Assembly (NCBI GenBank): GCA_951406725.2
Contig: OX597835.1
Span: forward strand, 9,610,001-9,674,000
From: Octopus vulgaris
Taxonomy: Eukaryota
Direction of reading: 5' to 3'
DNA length: 64,000 nucleotides
In this document: piece by piece, positions 2,780 through 59,586 of the stretch
Layout: every line of letters begins with the position of its first letter
Numbering within the stretch: the stretch's first letter is position 1
The notes under the pieces: model-generated
What the model saw: only the letters and a program-made list of their open reading frames with translations
The model's database searches: none
What the model was told of the DNA's origin: nothing
Made by a program: the position numbers and the translations under genes

Positions 2780-3085
2780 CAATATAATAATAATGATGAC
2801 AAGTTCTTGACTTGGTGCAAAGCCAGAAATTTGGTGGTAACGGTATCACGACAAAAGTATCGACCTAAGAGACAATACTTATTCAAGACGATAGAGAGAT
2901 GCTACTCCGGTGAAAGTACTACAAAGGACGTATTTGAGAAAGATAAACCTTCATATCTACTTCGATACAACGGAGCCTCTCTCTCCTTTTTTGGATTTGA
3001 TGTTATATCGTCGTCGTCATATTCAACAACATCATTATCCTTAAATAATAATTTTGTTTTTGTGTGTGTATATATGTGTATATAC

Positions 3086-3392
3086 GTCCCTACCCAGCTT
3101 ATTCCCCAGACCTTTCGCCTACCGACTACCGCTCTTTTCAAGCACCTTGATGGGTTCCTGTGAGAGAAGGAGTTCAAAAATGAAACTGTTGCTGAATGTG
3201 TGTTGAAAGAGATCATGAGCTCCAGGACTCCAGATTTTTATGTTACCGGAACAAATAAATTTGTAACTCGTTGACAAATATGTGTTGATTTAAATGGTAC
3301 TTACTTCGATGAATAAAATTTCCGCATCGTTGAAATATATTGTGATGAATTTCATGTTTCAAAACGTTGCTTACTTTTTACTCAGCCTGATA
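3086..3392 (+). mobile_element. Mariner (DD34D-type) transposase 3' remnant with probable right TIR
   Basis: Translates, with a frameshift and stops, to PAYSPDLSPTDY..FKHLDGFL*EKEFKN...DFYVTGTNKFVTR*QICVDLNGTYFDE*, i.e. the YSPDL motif and mariner C-terminus; ends in ...CAGCCTGA-TA. Confidence 0.85.
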
Positions 3393-5468
3393 TATATTAT
3401 GCATACAAGGTGATATGTGTCTGTTTGTTTGAGCACATGCAATGAAGTTTAACAACAACTGAAGCTGTTAAATGCTAACAAAGAATCTGAATTCAAAGAG
3501 CCGCTTTGACGGGCTTTCAAAATTCCAAACTCTATAGTAAAATTATCTTTATAAACATATATGATTTAATCCAATTCCGTTCTTTCTGCGGCGTTTACTT
3601 CAGCTTATTATCAATAACGAATTTAGTCATTCTAAATAACATCTCAATTATATATACATGTAATGAAATTTCCTGTTTTTGTACGGCTTAATCCGTTATT
3701 AGAACTTCTTTCAGTATTACCTAATATGCCTCTTATTTCCAAATCCTCTTTTTACTTTGTAAGTATATGTATGTGACTATATTTAAAAGTGAAAGAGAAA
3801 GTATCATAAGTTAAAGAAATGTTTATTATTCACGGTGGAACTTAAGTATTCTATTTAGTATTCACAGTGGAACTTTAGTATTTAGTACGTTTTTATTAGT
3901 TAAGATTATTCAAAGAAATCTATTTTCTTACGTAATTGGCAAAAGTATATCATAAACGTTGGCAGACACAAGAAACTTAGAATATGATTATAACCGAAGA
4001 TACTTTCAAAATAAAGGACATTTATCTGTTTCTGAGAACAACGATCCTACAATCTATTTCTTATAATTGAGTTTCAACATTCTGAACAAATCTTAACTAT
4101 TAAAGCTGTCCGTATTCTGTTTTGACTTATTTAATGTTATATTTTGTCGCGTAGTGTTGCTAATAAAGAGCCAAACTTTAATGTCCCTCTTATCTTGCCT
4201 GTTTTTTTTTTTTTTTTTTTTTTTTGTCACCCTCACAAAGGAAACCAAATCGACATCTCAATTTTTAATCATGGAAAATAGAATTTAAACATTCAGATTT
4301 ATAGACATTTATCTTACGACTGAACGGGGAATATTTGTTTACATTCAAATAAAAGACGTGTGCGCATTAAGATATTAATTTGATTATTGGATTTATTTAC
4401 AGAAAGATTTGTTAGAAAGAAGGACACCCAAGTATCTATAAAACACTGTCGCAATTCATACCATTTCTCCTTTTTAAGCTTGTTTTTCTATCTGCGATGT
4501 CTTTTTATTTGTAGGGATTCTAATACTTTTCGGAAATAATATTTGTATCTAAAATGCGATGATAGAAACTCAACTAAGGATTAAATCTAAAAACGCTGGC
4601 TTTAGAAGCCGATTGAAAGTATTTCGCTTCACATCTGGCGCTCACTCCATCCACAACAACCTGTACAGCTTGCCCTATTTCTCCATTTCATGTCGACGCC
4701 ATTTTGTAATATTTCAAACCAAAGCACTTATAACCCTAGCCCTAATATTACTTGACCTTGTGATGCTACACAGTTGTTAACCCTTCGATGCTTCAGCTGG
4801 ATACAGCTGGATAAATCTACTTCATACGTCTCTGTTTAATCATGCCTGCGTATGGTGTGCATGTCTGTGTGTGCGTGCGTGCGTGCGCGTGTATGCGTGT
4901 GTAACGTAGCGAACAACGAGAGACAGTGAAAATGTCGACATTGCTAATATTGTGCGTAACAATTAGATGGGAATACATATTAATGATAATGGTGCAGTTG
5001 TTTTTGTTTGACAATCACGATTAACTGAAAACAAACCAACCTTAGCAGGAAAAAAGAGTAGAAAGTGAAGCTGTCAGCGAAACCCGACATGATAAAGAAA
5101 TAATTCAAACAGCATTCGTTTGATTGTTTTCTATAAAAGAGACTCAGTGATTTTACAGTATTTATATTCGTTCTTTTCACTTTGACTTACACTGGTGAAA
5201 TTAATGGTTGTAAATGAACTGGAATCGGTTCAATTGATTTTTCCTTTTATTCTGCTAAATTTCGCTTAGCGTCTCGTCAAAAGACATCATGATTAGCATG
5301 TTTTGAAACAGACAATGGAGTCTGTGCCGTTCCGCTATGAAGCATAGCTATTACGACTTAGCTCCCTTTCAGGATGCATTAGAGAGCAATAAATTTACTC
5401 CGCTATGGTACGAGCTATTTTCCCATTCGCTTTCATCTAGCGCACGGCAATTGGCCGGCATGTACAGC

Positions 5469-6081
5469 CAATATATTTGCCCGAGTTCTACACTTATTTC
5501 AACATAGATAATGCCTAATTTTGTTTGCATCTAATTCTAGAATATGTCTTTTACATTCAAAATATTAGCGATTTCGTTTGTCACACGAATCCATGTTACC
5601 TTGTGTTCAATAGATCTCTACAGAATTTTAAAGGACGGATATTGCTAAGTATTTACAATGGAGAATGTTGTTTGATAGACTAGTGTCTTGTGTCAAAATG
5701 AGCGTAACTCTATCAAACGAGGAATTCTCTTTAAAGCAAATAAAAGTCTAACACAGACTACAAGCTACAATATATTTGCCCGAGTCCCACACTTATTTCA
5801 ACATAGATAATGCCTGATTTTGTTTGCATATAATTCTAGAATACGTCTTTTAAAATTCAAAATATTAGCAATTTCGTTCCGACGTTTAGAATTTGTCACA
5901 CGAATCCATGTTACCTTGTGTTCAATAGATCTCTACAGACTTTTAAAAACGGATATTGCTAAGTATTTACAATGGAGAATGTTGTTTGATAGACTAGTGT
6001 ATTGTGTCAAAATGAGCGTAACTCTATCAAACGATGAATTCTCTTTAAAGCAAATGAAAGTCTAACACAGACTACAAGCTA
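5469..6081. repeat. Tandem duplication of ~300 bp unique sequence (5469-5767 / 5768-6081)
   Basis: Both units start CAATATATTTGCCCGAGT and end CTAACACAGACTACAAGCTA; unit 1 lacks ~14 bp (CCGACGTTTAGAAT). Confidence 0.95.
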
Positions 6082-6394
6082 ATCATCCTAAAAAAAAACA
6101 GAGGCAAAGAAATAAAACATAGACGAAAAAAAATAACTTAATATAAATTGAGGTTTGTCATTTGGAAAACTGCGAACAGAAACCATAGAAGTGAGAGGTT
6201 GAATGTCGAAGCAATATATATACACACACATCTATATGTGGATGAAGGACGACAGAGACGATACATAAGTGTCTCAAGCAGCTGCTGTTTGCCAAGAGGC
6301 TCACAGCTCTTGACTCGATTACGTCGCTTCACAGATAATATGTACATTCATGTAGATACACACTCACACACACGTGTGTGTGCGTGTCCGCATG

Positions 6395-6635: not shown

Positions 6636-6987
6636 TACTTGCACGCACTCATATTTTTGCTCTCTGTACTGAATTGAATTTCGCTTGTTTGTATTCCCAA
6701 AGCATGTATGCTTGCAGATATGTATAAATGTATGCATGTATATAATGTCTTGTAAACAGTAACACATAAGTCTTCATATGCTTCTCCATAGGTAAAAATG
6801 ATTGCTTATCAACACGTATACATATGTTATGTTGATTTCACAGCGAAATAGTAATTAGGTTTGTCACAGAACATGCAGGCTGGATGCTGACGAGGGATGT
6901 GTTTTATTAAGTACGAAGGGAAGGGATTCAGTAGGATGTGTTGACGTAATCGGCAATATTATAATGAGGAGAACAGCCTTGATAACG

Positions 6988-13797: not shown

Positions 13798-14180
13798 AGA
13801 TGGCTGTGTGGTAAGTAGCTTGCTAACCAACCACATGGTTCCGGGTTCAGTCCCACTGCGTGGCATCTTGGGCAAGTGTCTTCTGCTATAGCCCCGGGCC
13901 GACCAATGCCTTGTGAGTGGATTTGGTAGACGGAAACTGAAAGAAGCCTGTCGTATATATGTATATATAAGTGTGTGTGTATATGTTTGTGTCTGTGTTT
14001 GTCCCCCTAGCACTGCTTGACAACCGATGCTGGTGTGTTCATGTCCCCGTTAGTTAGCGGTTCGGCAAAAGAGACCGATAGAATAAGTACTGGGGTCGAT
14101 TTGCTCGACTAAAGGCGGTGCTCCAGCATGGCCGCAGTCAAATGACTGAAACAAGTAAAAGAGTAAAAGAGTAAAGAGTA
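13798..14180 (+). mobile_element. SINE family B (tRNA head, CORE-like segment, internal TA/TG microsatellite)
   Basis: A box TGGCTGTGTGG, B box GGTTCAGTCCC, CTTGGGCAAGTGTCTT, internal microsatellite, tail (AAAGAGT)n; homologous to 21486, 22735 and 53875. Confidence 0.92.
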
Positions 14181-17207: not shown

Positions 17208-17466
17208 CAGAGTCAACAGATGAAATCCAGATATCAATATAGAAAAAGCTCAGTAGCATTCAAATGATTTGAACCCCAGAAACAGCTGTCTGACTTGTAA
17301 TACCCTCTCCATATTAATTTTCTGTGGGTTTGCTTTCTGTGTAAATTTCGGCTATCGATACATATATACCTGCATATTTTCAGTTGTATGTATGTATGTA
17401 TGTATGTATGTATGCATGTATGCATGTATCCATGCGTGTGCATATATGTTTGTATTATGCATATAT

Positions 17467-17700
17467 GTTTCTTTATTACCCACAAGGGGCTAAACATAGA
17501 GGGGACAAACAAGGACAGACAAATGAATTAAGTCGATTACATCGACCCCAGTGCTTTACTGGTGCTTAATTTATCGACCCCGAAAGGATGAAAGGCATAG
17601 CCGACCGCGGCGGAATTTGAACTCAGAACGTAGCGGCAGACGAAATACGGCTACGCATGTCGCCCGGCGTGCTAACGTTTCTGCCAGCACGCCGCCTTAA
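17467..17700 (-). mobile_element. Full-length SINE family A (tail 1) with 16 bp TSD
   Basis: TSD TGTATTATGCATATAT at 17451-17466 and 17702-17717. Confidence 0.92.
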
Positions 17701-19009: not shown

Positions 19010-19241
19010 TTGATTCGCTAGTCTCTGCACGCATATTTTTTTCTCTCCTTCTTTCTGTGTTTTTTCTCTGTGTATCTTTCTGTTGAAGAGCGTAGGCTCG
19101 AAACGTTAAAGACTTGTTTTATTTATATTTCCTGAGCGCCATACTAATACAATTGTTTGTTTGTATTCCACCTGCCTTCATCTTTTGTTTATTTCCGTAA
19201 ACCTGCCTTCGTCTTTTGTCTATTTTCATAAAGCTTCCCTT

Positions 19242-19242
<1 letters not shown>
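19009..19242 (+). mobile_element. ~230 bp (TA)n-inserted element, family P2, hammerhead-bearing
   Basis: Homologous to 35556-35753 (opposite strand), 36044-36222 and 59395-59586; each abuts (TA)n. Confidence 0.85.
19075..19112 (+). ncRNA. Minimal type I hammerhead motif, variant core CUGUUGA
   Basis: UCUUU-CUGUUGA-A-GAGC-guag-GCUC-GAAA-CG-UU|AAAGA: 5 bp stem I, 4 bp stem II, palindromic AACGUU stem III. Confidence 0.65.
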
Positions 19243-19292
<50 letters not shown>

Positions 19293-20087: not shown

Positions 20088-20758
20088 CATGATTATCTAT
20101 ATATATATATATATATATATATACCGGTACACATATTCCATCTGTATTCGTAACGTTTCAATCATTCCGTACAATTCCGCGAGAAAAAAGACATGTCGCG
20201 GCTTTTGCAACAAACTTTTCGTAGTACCAGATTTAATCAATTTGTCCATTAAATTTGCTGGTTGGTCATTGTTAGGTTTTATCGACGTAAATTGCCATGT
20301 GACATCTGTTAATTGAATATTGGTCGATACCATAATGTAATCTCTTTAATGTTCACCATAATCCTTAGTTCAATCCTGTACCGAATCGCGATATTAAGTA
20401 TTTAGGTCAGTGTCATTTCAGATAATATATTCCAGGATATATTCTAAACTCTCTTCTGTTATCTGTAACCTATTACAGAATGACGGATTTCCAAAAATAC
20501 TTATCCAGAAATACCTGCAGCGAATGTAATTACTCCATTAGGCTATGGTCAAAGACTTTTTGTCCACTGCAAGATTAATCCACGCATTTCTCTATTTGGA
20601 ATTTCTTTAATAAAAGCCCAAAACACACATTCTAAAACTACTAATTTTTTCCCAGAGTATAACATAGTTAAAACGAAACTATAAAAAAAAAGTCTTTCTT
20701 ATCAGAATAAAGCCCACCACCACCAACACCACCACCAATCTATCTCTATCTCTCACTA

Positions 20759-21101
20759 CACTCGCCTCCTTATGTGAGCTCAAAATCGCTCGTGGAAGCG
20801 CCATCCCAACCAAAATGCAAATATATGGGAAATTACCACCTGTGTCATCTCTTGTGAAAGGTAGAAGAGTCCAGTTTGCTGGACATTGTTGTAGAGCTGA
20901 AAAAGAAGTAATCTCTACTCTTCTCCTCTGGAAGCCATCTACTCGCAATACCAGAGGGCGCACACTCTCCTACCCTGATGTAATCTCCAGGGATACAGGC
21001 ATCCAGCAACAGGACCTCCGTAATGCTATCATGGACCGTGAAGTCTGGCGTAACATAGTAAATTCCATTGTCTCGACCACGGTCGAACAATGATGATGAT
21101 G
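20759..21101 (+). mobile_element. RTE-like LINE, 5'-truncated 3' end with (TGA)n tail and 11 bp TSD
   Basis: ORF 20815-21093 has RRVQFAGHCCR..LLWKP..RGR..DREVWR, the typical RTE C-terminus; stop runs into TGATGATGA; TSD ATCTCTCACTA at 20748-20758 and 21102-21112. Confidence 0.9.
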
Positions 21102-21485: not shown

Positions 21486-21703
21486 CTCTTTACTCTTTTA
21501 CTTGTTTCAGTCATTTGACTGCGGCCATGCTGGAGCACCGCCTTTTAGTCGAGCAACTCGACCCCGGGACTTATTCTTTGTAAGCCCAGTACTTATTCTA
21601 TCGGTCTCTTTTGCCGAACCGCTAAGTGACGGGGACGTAAACACACCAGCATCGGTTGTCAAGCAATGCTAGGGAGACAATCACAGACACACAAACACAC
21701 ACA

Positions 21704-21744
<41 letters not shown>

Positions 21745-21902
21745 GACGGGCTTCTTTCAGTTTCCGTCTACCAAATCCACTCACAAGGCTTTGGTCGGCC
21801 CGAGGCTATAGCAGAAGACACTTGCCCAAGGTGCCACGCAGTGGGACTGAACCCGGAATCATGTGGTTGGTAAACAAGCTACTTACCACACAGCCACTCC
21901 TG
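21486..21902 (-). mobile_element. Full-length SINE family B
   Basis: Reverse complement of the 13798-14180 structure including the internal (TA)n. Confidence 0.92.
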
Positions 21903-22084: not shown

Positions 22085-22650
22085 GGCGGTGAGCTGGCAG
22101 AAACGTTAGCGCGCCGAGTGAAAGCCTGAGCGGTATTTTGTCTGCCATTACGTTCTGAGTTCAAATTCCGCTGAGGTCGACTTTGTCTTTCTTCCTTTCG
22201 GGGTCGATTGAATAAGTACCAGTTACGCACTGGGGTCGATATAAACGACGTAATCTGTTTGTCTGTCTTTGTTTGTCCTCTCTGTATTTAGCCCCTTGTG
22301 GGTAGTAAAGAAATAGGTATTTCGTCTACCGTTACGTTCTGAGTTCAAATTCCGCCGAGGTCGACTTTGTCTTTCTTCCTTTTGGGGTCGATTAAATAAG
22401 TACCAGTAACGCACTGGGGTCGATATAAACGACGTAATCTGTTTGTCTGTCTTTGTTTGTCCTCTCTGTGTTTAGCCCCTTGTGGGTAGTAAAGAAATAG
22501 GTATTTTTTGTCTGTTTGTACCTTCTGGGTTCAAATTCCACCGAGATCGAATTTTGGGGTCGATGCACTAGTTGCGTTCTGGAATCTATGTAATCAACTG
22601 GCACCCTCCCCCAAAATTTCGGGCTTTGTGGCTAGAGTAGAAAAGCTTAT
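22085..22650 (+). mobile_element. Head-to-tail array of SINE family A units
   Basis: One head, then two ~185 bp units each ending AAAGAAATA and restarting at GGTATTT; the third unit is older and has tail 2. Confidence 0.88.
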
Positions 22651-22734: not shown

Positions 22735-23134
22735 TTTTTTGCTTGTTTCAGTAATTTGACTGCGGCCATGCTGGAGCACCGCCTTTAGTCGAGCAAATCC
22801 ACCCCAGGACTTATTCTTTGTAAGCCCAGTACTTATTCTATCGGTCTCTTTTGCCGAACTGCTAAGTGACGGGGACGTATACACACCAGCATCGGTTGTC
22901 AAGCAATGCTAGGGGGACAAACACAGACACACAAACACACACACGCATACATATATATATATACATATATACGGCGGGCTTTATTCAGTTTCCGTCTACC
23001 AAATCCACTCACAAGGCTTCGGTCGGCCCGAGGATATAGTAGAAGACACTTGACCAAGGTACCACGCAGTGGGACTGAACCCGGAACCATGTGGTTGGTA
23101 AACAAGCTACTTACCACACAGCCACTCCTGCGCC
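22735..23134 (-). mobile_element. Full-length SINE family B
   Basis: Same structure as 21486-21902. Confidence 0.92.
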
Positions 23135-35487: not shown

Positions 35488-35555
<68 letters not shown>

Positions 35556-35753
35556 ACGGGAAAGTTTATGAAAATAAACAAAAGACGAAGGCAGGTGGAG
35601 TACAAACAAACAAATGTATTAGAATACCGCTAAGGAATAGAAATAGAAAAAGTATTTTACGTTTCGAGCCTACGCTCTTCGACAGAAAGATACACAGAAA
35701 AAAACAAGGAGAGAAAAAAATGCGTGTAAGAGCTAACGATCTATCATGGCGTC
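35556..35753 (-). mobile_element. Family P2 element with hammerhead motif at ~35653-35690 (core CUGUCGA, GUA triplet)
   Basis: Minus: UCUUU-CUGUCGA-A-GAGC-guag-GCUC-GAAA-CG-UA|AAAUA; (TA)n on both sides. Confidence 0.85.
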
Positions 35754-36043
35754 CTATATACACACATACATACGTATATATACACATATATACACACACA
35801 CACACATATATATATATATGTATATATAGGTGTGACTGTGTGGCTCCCCTGTCACCACCTGACGACCGGTGCTGATTTGTTTACCTCCCCGTAAACTATC
35901 AATAGAGTACGATAGAATAAGTACCAGAGTTTAAAGGTGGTGCACCAGCGTGGCCGTAGTCTAATGACTGAAACAAGTATAAGATAAATGTGTTTTGTGC
36001 ATATTCCTTACATAATTGTATACGCATACATACATACATCAGC

Positions 36044-36218
36044 CATGATTGACCGCTAACTCCAAAAGTTTTATGTTTTCATTCTCTTTCTGTTTATTCC
36101 CTCGTGTGTGTTTCTGTTGAAAAGCGTAGGCTCGAAAGACTTCCTCATATTCCCAAGCGTCAAACTAAAACATCTTGTTTATACACCTGTCTTCGTATTT
36201 TGATTTTCTGTAAATTTC

Positions 36219-36222
<4 letters not shown>
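36044..36222 (+). mobile_element. Degenerate family P2 element (cleavage site deleted)
   Basis: CTGTTGAAAAGCGTAGGCTCGAAAGAC; ends at (TA)n. Confidence 0.7.
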
Positions 36223-40159: not shown

Positions 40160-40366
40160 AAATTTAATCCAAACAAGAAAGCACAAATAAAACGCAACAA
40201 CGCGAGGACGTGGAACAAATATAACATTATTGGACGCTCAGGAAAGAAGGAGGGTTTAACGTTTCGAGCGGAGCTCTTCGTCGGAAACATAGGAGAAGGA
40301 AAGATCTAGAGAAGGGAAGATAGAGGAAAAAAATCGCCAACGGTACACACGAGGTCACATTTTGAA
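40160..40366 (-). mobile_element. P2-related element with hammerhead motif at 40254-40288 (core CCGACGA)
   Basis: Minus: GUUU-CCGACGA-A-GAGC-ucc-GCUC-GAAA-CG-UU|AAAC; shares the CGCTCAGGAAA segment with P2. Confidence 0.7.
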
Positions 40367-50197: not shown

Positions 50198-50547
50198 AAG
50201 TCAACCTGGGAGAAATTTGAATATAGCGCGTAAAGTCGGACGAAATGCCATAATGCATTTTCCCCGGCATGTTAATGATTCTGCCAGCTCACCGACTTAT
50301 ATCTGGCCTATCTGTTATGTTTCATTTGTTTCAGTCATTCAATTGTGGCCATGCTGGAGCTCCGCCTTGAGGAACTTCACTCGAGTGAATGGACCCCACT
50401 TCTTTTTTCTAAGTTTAGTACTCATTCTATCAGTTCTTTTGCCGAACCGCTAAGTCTGTATGATACGGGATCATAAACACAATGACACCAGTTGACAAGC
50501 CGTGGTGAGGACAAATACAGGCACAAAGACACGCGTACATATATATA

Positions 50548-50593
<46 letters not shown>

Positions 50594-51355
50594 CGGGCTT
50601 CTTTCAGTTTCCGTCTACCAAATCCATTTACAAGGCTTTGGTCGGCCCAAGGCTATAGTCGAAGACGCTAACCCAAGGTGTCACGCAGTAAGGCTAAGCC
50701 TGAAACTTTGTGGTTGGGAAGCAAACTTAATGCCATGCAAAATATTTTGTATTTCTCATGTCATGAAAATGTACTTCTCATAACAAATTGCAAACAAATT
50801 CCTAACTGTGCAAATAAGTACCAGCTGCAGACTGGGTTCCTTGTAATCGATTTATCTCCAATGTTCGATATATTAATGCTTATTACTGCATAATAATGTA
50901 GTACAGTAAGTCAAAATGTATAAACATGAGCTCCGTTTACAGAAGCGAAGTAAATGACAAAGGAGTCACACTAACGACTTAGCTGTTAAAATAAACACGA
51001 CAATCACAAGAATCTGTTGGTTATTGATTATAATTAATCCGCTAAAGACTAAGACATCTTTCCTGCCAAGACAGACGTGCATTTCTGAGAAAGTGGCAAT
51101 AAAAGAATTTATGATATTATCACAAGGTATTATTGGTACAGTTAGAAATTTGTTTGCAATTTGTTATGAGAAGTACATTTTCATGACATGAGAAATACAA
51201 AATATTTTGCATGGTTATTAAGTTTGCTTCCCAACCACAAAGTTTCAGGGTTAGCCTTACTGCGTGACACCTTGGGTTAACGTCTTCAACTATAGCCTTG
51301 GGCCGACCAAAGCCTTGTAAATGGATTTGGTAGAGGGAAACTGAAAGAAGCCCGT

Positions 51356-51386
<31 letters not shown>

Positions 51387-51724
51387 GCGTGTCTTTGTGC
51401 CTGTATATGTCCCCCATCACGGCTTGTCAACTGGTGTCATTGCGTTTATGATCCCGTATCATACAGACTTAGCGGTTCGGCAAAAGAACTGATAGAATGA
51501 GTACCAAACTTAGGAAAAAGAAGTGGGGTCCATTCACTCGAGTAAAGTTCCTCAAGGCGGAGCTTCAGCACGGCCCCAATCGAATGACTGAAACAAACGA
51601 AACATAACAGACAGGCCAGATATAAGACGGTGAGCTGGCAGAATCTTTAACATGCCGGGGAAAATGCATTATGGCATTTCGTCCGACTTTACGCTCTATA
51701 TTCAAATTTCTCCCAGGTTGACTT
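50198..51724. repeat. Inverted duplication, arms 50198-50816 and 51131-51724, spacer ~314 bp
   Basis: Arms contain the same SINE A head, SINE B copy and non-SINE linker sequence with shared private mutations. Confidence 0.95.
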
Positions 51725-52038: not shown

Positions 52039-52091
52039 TCAACTTTTGGCAGAAATTCAGTAATTCTGAAGGGCGGGACTTCGTTGATATC

Positions 52092-52324
52092 TATTTCTTT
52101 ACTACCCACAAGGGGATAAACACAGAGGGGACAAACAAGGACAGACAAACGGATTAAGTCGATTATATCGACCCCAGTGCGTAACTGGTACTTATTTAAT
52201 CGACCCCGAAAGGATGAAAGGCAAAGTCGACCTCGGCGGAATTTGAACTCAGAACGTAACAGCAGACGAAATACGGCTACGCATTTCGCCCGGTGTGCTA
52301 ACGTTTCTGCCAGCTTGCCGCCTA
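52092..52324 (-). mobile_element. Full-length SINE family A (tail 1) with 14 bp TSD
   Basis: TSD ACTTCGTTGATATC at 52078-52091 and 52325-52338; appears inserted in an older family A copy. Confidence 0.93.
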
Positions 52325-53698: not shown

Positions 53699-54395
53699 CA
53701 GTGTTTCTGGAATGGAGGGCCGCAAGATGTATTTAGGTCCACCTTGCATATTTTTACATGTAATTTACGGCTTCAAAACAATCCATATTATCGAATCAAT
53801 GACGAATGAAACGTCATTTTTCCATAATTTTGTTAAACATAACTTATATTAATAAAACGTACTCTATACTTTTTCTTTCTTTTACTTTTACTTATTTCAG
53901 TCATTTGACTGCGGCCATGCTGGAGCACCGCCTTTAGTCGAGCAAATCGACCCCGGGACTTATTCTTTGTAAGCCCAGTACTTATTCTATCGGTCTCTTT
54001 TGCCGAACCGCTAAGTGACAGGGACGTAAACACACCAGCATCGGTTGTCAAGCAATGCTAGGGGGACAAACACAGACACACAAACACACACACACATACA
54101 TATACATATATACGACAGGCTTCTTTCAGTTTCCGTCTACCAAATCCACTGACAAGGCATTGGTCGGCCCGGGGCTATAGCAGAAGACATTTGCCCAAGA
54201 TGCCACGCAGTGGGACTGAACCCGGAACCATGTGGCTGGTTAGCAAGCTACTTACCACACAGCCACTCCTGCGCCTATTCGTTCATATTTTAAAATTAAA
54301 AATAGTCGTGTTTCATATCGTTTGCGAAGTGCGGCAATAATTCTATATTTAGTTTCTAGTTAAGCACAAAGTAAAAAGAAAACAGAGAACCGCTG
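53699..54395. mobile_element. Possible old hAT (Charlie-like) MITE, interrupted by a SINE
   Basis: CAGTGTTTCT ... AGAACCGCTG ends; putative 8 bp TSD CGTTAGAG / CGTCTGAC matches only 5/8. Confidence 0.4.
53875..54276 (-). mobile_element. Full-length SINE family B
   Basis: Same structure as 21486-21902. Confidence 0.92.
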
Positions 54396-59395: not shown

Positions 59396-59581
59396 GCCAT
59401 AGATCGTTAGCCACTACACACATTTTTTTTCTCTCCTTGTTTTTTTTTCTGTGTCCCTTTCCGTAGAAGAGCGTAGGCTCGAAACGTAAAAGACTTTTTC
59501 TATTCCTGAGCGTAATACTAATACATTTGTTTGTTTGTACACCACCTGTCTTCGTCTTTTGTTTATTTTCGTAAACTTGTC

Positions 59582-59586
<5 letters not shown>
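59395..59586 (+). mobile_element. Family P2 element with hammerhead motif at ~59457-59492 (core CCGUAGA)
   Basis: CUUU-CCGUAGA-A-GAGC-guag-GCUC-GAAA-CG-UA|AAAG; ends at (TA)n. Confidence 0.85.

Follow-up and report, generated by a model that had tools for sequence, protein, structure and literature searches.

A young Penelope-like retrotransposon of Octopus vulgaris whose hammerhead motif carries U at core position 6

The closest described system is the minimal hammerhead of Penelope-like elements (Cervera & de la Peña 2014, PMC4209133), which has a type I layout with an extra nucleotide between A9 and G10.1, a G10.1-C11.1 pair and a palindromic 15.2-16.2 segment without loop III, and which occurs in both pLTRs and in thousands of solo truncated copies. 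The family described here shares all of these features but has the core CUGUNGA, whereas the 56 representatives of that study carry A6 and the variants described there are U3-A8 and not position 6. Minimal Penelope hammerheads are weak even as dimers (PMC4209133, PMC6765202), their function has been called unclear (PMC8557442), and a circle model of Penelope transposition has been proposed (PMC4209133). The hammerhead of the anole element Poseidon (PAc) cuts only with the element protein; ribozyme mutants were without effect on insertion in vitro and no RNA ends were found at the cut site (PMC11167929). In PAc, and apparently also here, reverse transcription begins inside the RNA downstream of the hammerhead and uncut RNA is the main template. 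The PAc initiation site, however, is without target homology and its ORF starts inside stem II (PMC11167929), while here the 3' end is an internal TTATATAT matching the (TA)n target and about 770 nt separate the motif from the ATG downstream.

Changes at position 6 of the hammerhead consensus (given in PMC7151607) are known mainly from A6C. A natural A6C hammerhead of phage Bcep176 cleaves at <0.1 per min and is weak but active (PMC3088659), with strong impairment in Mg2+ and rescue by Mn2+, and the same change lowers the rate of a canonical ribozyme by orders of magnitude in Mg2+ (PMC7151607). The octopus family resembles Bcep176 in its natural pyrimidine at position 6, which in the phage means low Mg2+ activity and not a dead ribozyme (PMC3088659, PMC7151607), but the phage case is a single sequence with a full stem III, whereas here a minimal dimer-type motif is carried by a U6 lineage that numbers about 16,000 copies or more. 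In a mutational scan, single and double mutants of the CUGA turn had low activity, all except the C3-G8 swap (PMC9901934). Searches of the accessible literature gave no A6U hammerhead; their coverage excludes Lünse et al. 2017, which may bear on novelty. The available text of the octopus Penelope literature, including PMC13282606, describes Penelope-like families and no ribozyme. The U6 core is a previously unseen form of a known motif, the Penelope minimal hammerhead, in a known element type.

Hammerhead copies in the window

The window, the whole stretch of 64,000 nt analysed here, is contig C22 9610001-9674000 of a 2.80-Gb assembly of 227 contigs, to which all genome-wide counts refer. It contains four copies with a CYGUNGA core in the minimal type I hammerhead layout and one sister copy with CCGACGA. 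The first copy (19010..19243, plus strand) is a 5'-truncated pLTR (3' terminal repeat) of a Penelope-like element, belonging to the second-youngest subfamily and inserted in (TA)n. A first look with the 229-nt window copy gave 2,012 candidates, and all 40 that were scored are 98-100% identical to it (one being the window itself); it also matches at 213 of 216 positions the repeat that follows RT-endonuclease remnants in locus L012. Its hammerhead motif (19075..19112, plus strand), recognised by layout and by a relaxed scan, has the core CUGUUGA with U6 at 19083. The 5' half consists of stem I UCUUU (19075-79), CUGUUGA (19080-86), the extra A and GAGC-guag-GCUC, and the 3' half of GAAA (19100-03), the palindrome ACGU (19103-06), H17 (U19107) and stem I AAAGA (19108-12), with the predicted cut at 19107/19108. 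A 31-nt tandem duplication in the 3' tail of this subfamily (window 19170-19232) is missing from the youngest intact elements.

Among the other three copies, an older pLTR at 35555..35754 (minus strand) has a hammerhead at 35653-35690 with core CUGUCGA, U6 at 35682 and H17 = A, and a pLTR of the N7 = A subfamily at 59396..59585 (plus strand) has one at 59456-59493 with core CCGUAGA and U6 at 59464; both were found by the relaxed scan. An old, decayed pLTR (36042..36222, plus strand), recognised by sequence reading, retains CUGUUGA at 36114-36120 with U6 at 36117, carries G10.1>A and has lost 7 nt after GAAA, comprising C15.2 to H17 (the cleavage triplet) and three stem I bases. The sequence-only reading had described four U6 copies with N7 = U, C, U and A and a deleted triplet in one of them, and this agrees with three intact copies plus the one at 36114.

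The relaxed hammerhead scan of both window strands gave six folds, four of which are the copies at 19080, 35685 (minus), 59461 and the sister copy at 40284 (minus); the other two are without cleavage triplet and without stem I, and the 36114 copy is not among the six. Rfam reported no hammerhead among the 150 matches listed of 215 for the window, and for 19040-19200 the motif had no match at E<=10. Stem I, stem II with G10.1-C11.1, the extra base after A9, the palindromic 15.2-16.2 and NUH are all present in the U6 family, but its core departs from the consensus CUGANGA (A6), and the motif is therefore classed as a minimal-hammerhead variant, not as a consensus member.

The sister copy (40160..40365, minus strand; hammerhead 40254-40288, from the relaxed scan) belongs to a separate family with A6, C4 (CCGACGA), a 3-nt loop II (UCC) and stem I GUUU/AAAC, and shows one C-G to G-C compensatory change against the main family. 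The sister families of this genome keep A6 and are about as abundant as the main family, with 13,710 matches, mostly CCGACGA with loop UCC, so that C4 is a second non-canonical core, carried by most of the sister family. U4C is known as a low-activity natural variant (PMC3088659). A tblastn search for a sister-family ORF in the window and 30 loci (L091-L120) found no coding remnant of that family; the hits were a remnant of the GUAG family (L108) and one weak match (L116).

In an 11-row alignment, with rows chosen and fitted by the author, six of nine stem pairs changed on both sides across families. Inside the U6 family the stems are nearly invariant, so that the covariation noticed earlier shows up between families alone. 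The dimer fold has a predicted energy of -14.9 kcal/mol, well above the cofold minimum of -28.0 kcal/mol. A U6-A15.1 'zipper' masking the palindrome was predicted in the 19080 copy (-10.8 vs -8.4 kcal/mol), but its mean probability in 37 copies fell from 0.66 with 8-nt flanks to 0.24 with 35-nt flanks, the palindrome is hidden in canonical relatives too, and the C4 sister family has no such pairing; it is kept only as a weak idea.

The parent element and its core position 6

At 30 fetched loci the 3' end of the repeat is fixed and runs nearly always into (TA)n, in agreement with the (TA)n targeting proposed from the window, while the 5' end is variable; in longer copies RT and GIY-YIG coding sequence lies upstream. 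An RT search of the genome gave 95 scored matches, all without internal stop and with open frames of 536-1,214 aa. A complete unit at locus L168 consists of repeat, ORF of 1,079 aa from ATG (2923-6162) and repeat, and measures 4,573 nt from motif to motif; about 770 nt separate the first motif from the ATG downstream of it. In units of this type both repeats carry the same U6 motif, about 4.5 kb apart. Since longer copies run into RT/GIY-YIG coding sequence with long open frames and U6 in both repeats, the short window copies are 5'-truncated 3' ends (pLTRs) of an autonomous, young and recently active Penelope-like element of about 4.5 kb. The sequence-only reading was right in seeing a Penelope-type minimal hammerhead, but the family it called short is so by truncation. 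A non-LTR retrozyme or non-autonomous SINE-like element (a short non-coding tandem unit) was rejected because the unit is about 4.5 kb and coding.

The L168 protein matches RVT_1 at E=1.4e-7, which passes the cut-off, and GIY-YIG at E=4e-4 with 21.0 bits, just under the Pfam cut-off of 22.6; its homologues (39-59% identity) contain PF00078 and some of them PF01541. A single ORF with RT and C-terminal GIY-YIG is the mark of endonuclease-positive Penelope-like elements, and the partial-tandem pseudo-LTR arrangement is shown by 35 of 60 long loci, which hold two motifs at a spacing of 4.2-4.9 kb. The start of the upstream repeat differs from copy to copy, ranging from -528 to -1,442 in the 12 loci where it could be seen, and lies beside host microsatellite. 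The protein has the linker CX4CXXC (CSRPRCRTC), of the CX2-5CXXC type between RT and endonuclease, together with CISCSLC and two His as the CCHH motif. Elements of the Neptune clade likewise have a C-terminal GIY-YIG, a CX2-5CXXC linker, two Cys in the GIY-YIG core plus two His, microsatellite targeting and partial-tandem pLTRs. The linker marks both Neptune and Nematis elements (PMC8557442, PMC3846280). The element thus appears to be Neptune-type as judged on protein motifs, with a linker common to both groups; its nearest RT relatives carry the hammerhead motif printed for Acropora digitifera Neptune, which indirectly supports this placement. The sense strand of the whole element is strongly pyrimidine-rich, and at L168:5817-6162 the ORF continues into a C/T-rich stretch that gives a Pro/Ser/Leu low-complexity tail whose stop varies among copies. 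Fold-back insertions, with inverted back-to-back pLTR copies 140-300 nt apart, were seen at L039/L040, L074 and L089.

The 22-mer from G8 to U16.1 is found 17,870 times in exact form across the genome (reversed control, 0), and a pattern anchored on stem I and its flanks only has 7,505 (control, 40), confirming that the motif is not a chance arrangement. When the 22-mer was combined with the core, exact genome counts for the three bases covered were 15,884 for U6, 188 for A6 and 50 for G6; the U6 family thus comprises about 16,000 or more copies. Among the first 100 of the 7,505 core-blind matches, position 6 (read by eye) was T94 C4 A1 G1, and among the 30 stored loci T26 C3 A1. For the oldest recognisable subfamily, with 374 copies, the first 100 gave T83 C9 A6 G2, also by eye, and all 98 hammerhead motifs of the 60 long RT-bearing loci have U6. 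The genome-wide consensus is therefore not A6, and U6 is the majority in every subfamily examined, as expected if the family spread while carrying A6U. All 56 published representatives (Fig. S3) have A6, and the descriptor required it (PMC4209133 supplement), so that standard CUGANGA searches would miss the family, as had been suspected.

A scan of 80 related loci in metagenome assemblies turned up 21 minimal hammerheads (20 A6, 1 G6, 0 U6; three shuffles gave 0). Because relatives in other organisms (20/21) and the published representatives carry A6, U6 is derived, and it is older than every recognisable subfamily. A tree computed for 99 copies after masking of positions 6 and 7 (rough supports) interleaves A6 with U6 copies and requires 23 changes; such scattered A6 copies are as expected for independent back-mutations, though a small A6 remnant might still lie behind the excess of A6 over G6 (188 vs 50). 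An older A6 subfamily in the GUAG-loop family, suggested by a cluster with A6 in five of six copies, was rejected, since that sample was enriched for A6 by the search and core-blind sampling gave 83/100 U6. In the oldest subfamily, the 9 C6 copies among the first 100 could have arisen by plain transitions or could form a small A6C-like sublineage. Three sequencing runs with other organism codes contain pieces identical across position 6, at a depth and labelling insufficient for cross-species conservation.

Core constraint, cut site and terminal repeats

Constraint was estimated from 72 copies not fetched by core-fixing patterns, all within <=6 substitutions of the 22-mer and clustered on flank columns. 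With six clusters, 2 of 28 core columns were variable against 46 of 116 flank columns (Fisher p=7e-4; flank variability is inflated by a low-complexity upstream flank) and 1 of 10 stem I columns; five clusters gave 1/28 against 40/113, and eight gave 2/28 against 45/116. Subfamily majorities differ by 9-34% in the flanks, as measured in a sample for which the core had in part been a selection criterion and in which A6 was over-represented. The variable core columns are N7, with all four bases, and H17, with majorities of only A or U, the two positions left free in the established hammerhead numbering. G5, G8, G12, A13 and A14 are all kept among subfamilies, and the conserved block is bounded by the two stem I strands. 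This pattern favours retained function. There is no variation in loop II or the extra A either, and further conserved runs lie downstream; protein binding could therefore explain part of the core conservation.

The 3' end of the element lies at the internal TTATATAT, where it is joined to host (TA)n; the predicted cut is about 100 nt upstream of this point, or 130 nt in the subfamily of the window copy. The same sequence, which matches the target, is seen at L168:2250-2262 and at all tandem junctions. Priming by annealing at this sequence is suggested, and with initiation downstream of the cut RT must cross the cut site. Among young copies, 42 fit the junction pattern at the cut site, as against 23 at a control 16 nt upstream and 3,126 that read through. 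The excess is about two-fold over one control (binomial p=0.025) at a site with TA microhomology, and 3 of 30 inspected cut-site junction matches are not truncations. The pile-up of 5' ends, confounded by this microhomology, was dropped as evidence of cleavage. None of 25 long single-motif copies begins at +1 (nearest, +13, +41 and +66), and all 35 long copies that reach the upstream motif read through it. The 3,126 read-through copies and the 0/25 at +1 imply templates that were uncut or rejoined; a cut-site footprint is expected to be absent for both alike.

The two repeats of one element resemble each other more than those of different elements. In 34 of the 35 tandem elements (one was left out, its upstream repeat being too short), compared over 352 columns, repeats differ by 1.35 substitutions within and 3.77 between elements; none of 20,000 re-pairings gave a value as low, and the first 13 elements gave the same result. 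Variant calls numbered 78 in both repeats and 55, mostly singletons, in one. The shared variants would fit a unit-length template copied more than once, and template jumps, homogeneous source arrays or gene conversion would give the same homogenised repeats. At one locus (L370, contig C13 869300-879200; n=1), the 3' repeat ending near 6900 has older alleles upstream of the motif and younger ones downstream, with a haplotype switch between -45 and +51 that spans the cut site and private mismatches at +6 and +8. Contigs of 4 of 22 sequencing runs contained no molecule ends and no canonical splice joint.

Competing explanations and other features of the window

Taken together, these genomic patterns make it likely, at a rough probability of 0.5, that the terminal-repeat hammerhead with lineage-wide U6 is a slowed, protein-assisted ribozyme that occasionally cuts the element's RNA and rejoins it as a unit-length template. 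In a tandem transcript the two motifs would pair through the ACGU palindrome, as in the dimer model, and A6U would lower the rate such that most RNA reaching RT is uncut or religated; such RNA would be needed, as reverse transcription seems to start about 100-130 nt downstream of the cut and must read through. Rare cutting at both repeats followed by ligation could give a 4.5-kb circle, and RT copying it more than once round would regenerate the upstream repeat. Efficient cutting is opposed by the missing pile-up of inserts at the cut site and by the strong loss of activity in published position-6 changes. A further proposal, put forward tentatively, is that U6 is a selected functional core setting: the element would have tuned its ribozyme down to cut and ligate only with its own protein or another cofactor, and a 4.5-kb circular RNA reverse-transcribed more than once round would account for the identical repeats. 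If so, the element would provide the first A6U hammerhead found in nature and, to date, the strongest genomic case for the Penelope circular-template model, and whole ribozyme families would have been missed by CUGANGA searches.

A serious though less probable alternative is that A6U silenced catalysis and the motif persists as a non-cutting RNA structure that offers the element's RT-endonuclease a site for binding or folding, with tandems arising from template jumps or multimeric transcripts. Reading through the upstream motif in 35/35 long copies, the ratio of 3,126 read-through copies to 42 junctions, the invariant loop II and the strongly deleterious effect of position-6 changes all agree with it, and in a relative the ribozyme is dispensable for insertion in vitro (PMC11167929). 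Against such a scaffold stands the catalytic signature of the constraint: variation is confined to N7, where all four bases occur, and H17, where A and U but no majority of G are seen, and G5, G8, G12, A13 and A14 are kept. The attenuated, protein-assisted ribozyme that cuts and rejoins is preferred. Neutral hitch-hiking, in a successful element, of a ribozyme dead since A6U is opposed by the constancy of 26 of 28 core columns while flank majorities differ by 9-34%; the known sensitivity of A6 and the success of Naiad elements without hammerheads speak for this reading, which is already largely refuted and improbable.

Conservation of the block at the level of DNA or splicing, as an internal promoter or as a 3' splice site after a long pyrimidine tract with U6 incidental, is unlikely, if slightly less so than hitch-hiking. 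A pyrimidine tract does precede the motif, loop II has an invariant UAG and the Drosophila Penelope intron ends at helix I (PMC4209133), but conservation is bounded by the stem I strands and spares N7 and H17, and the CTGTAG of the N7 = A subfamily is not kept in younger subfamilies. The sequence-only reading had also considered a ribozyme-dead parasite that is mobilised in trans, which would be short and non-coding. Most copies are indeed short (3' ends only) and those in the window are all without coding sequence; their 5' ends, however, are variable, longer copies run seamlessly into the RT-endonuclease ORF, and the same U6 motif stands in both repeats of intact young elements. The motif thus belongs, as its pLTR hammerhead, to an autonomous element whose RT-endonuclease frames are long and open, and with the autonomous copies refuting it the parasite has a negligible chance of being correct.

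The family is a natural experiment: a core change known to cripple other hammerheads became fixed at an early stage, yet the element continued to spread and the remaining core positions stayed hammerhead-like in constraint. Near-identical intact elements and natural A6 revertant copies are ready test pairs: activity would extend the hammerhead consensus and show that descriptor searches undercount, and inactivity would show a non-catalytic role. The outcome bears on whether Penelope hammerheads need to cut at all.

The window also contains dispersed repeat families of 190-240 nt, 83-93% identical and in both orientations (13801-14005, 17461-17696, 21695-21896, 22085-22504, 22923-23124, 52087-52322 and 54061-54265), which are probably SINEs. 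A 141-aa open frame at 20668-21093 (plus strand), with a near-identical fragment in locus L008, presumably corresponds to the C-terminal part of an RTE-type LINE protein, which it resembles. At 50198-51724 an inverted duplication built from dispersed repeats has 313-nt arms that are 95% and inner 169-nt arms that are 97% complementary, with a central stretch between them.
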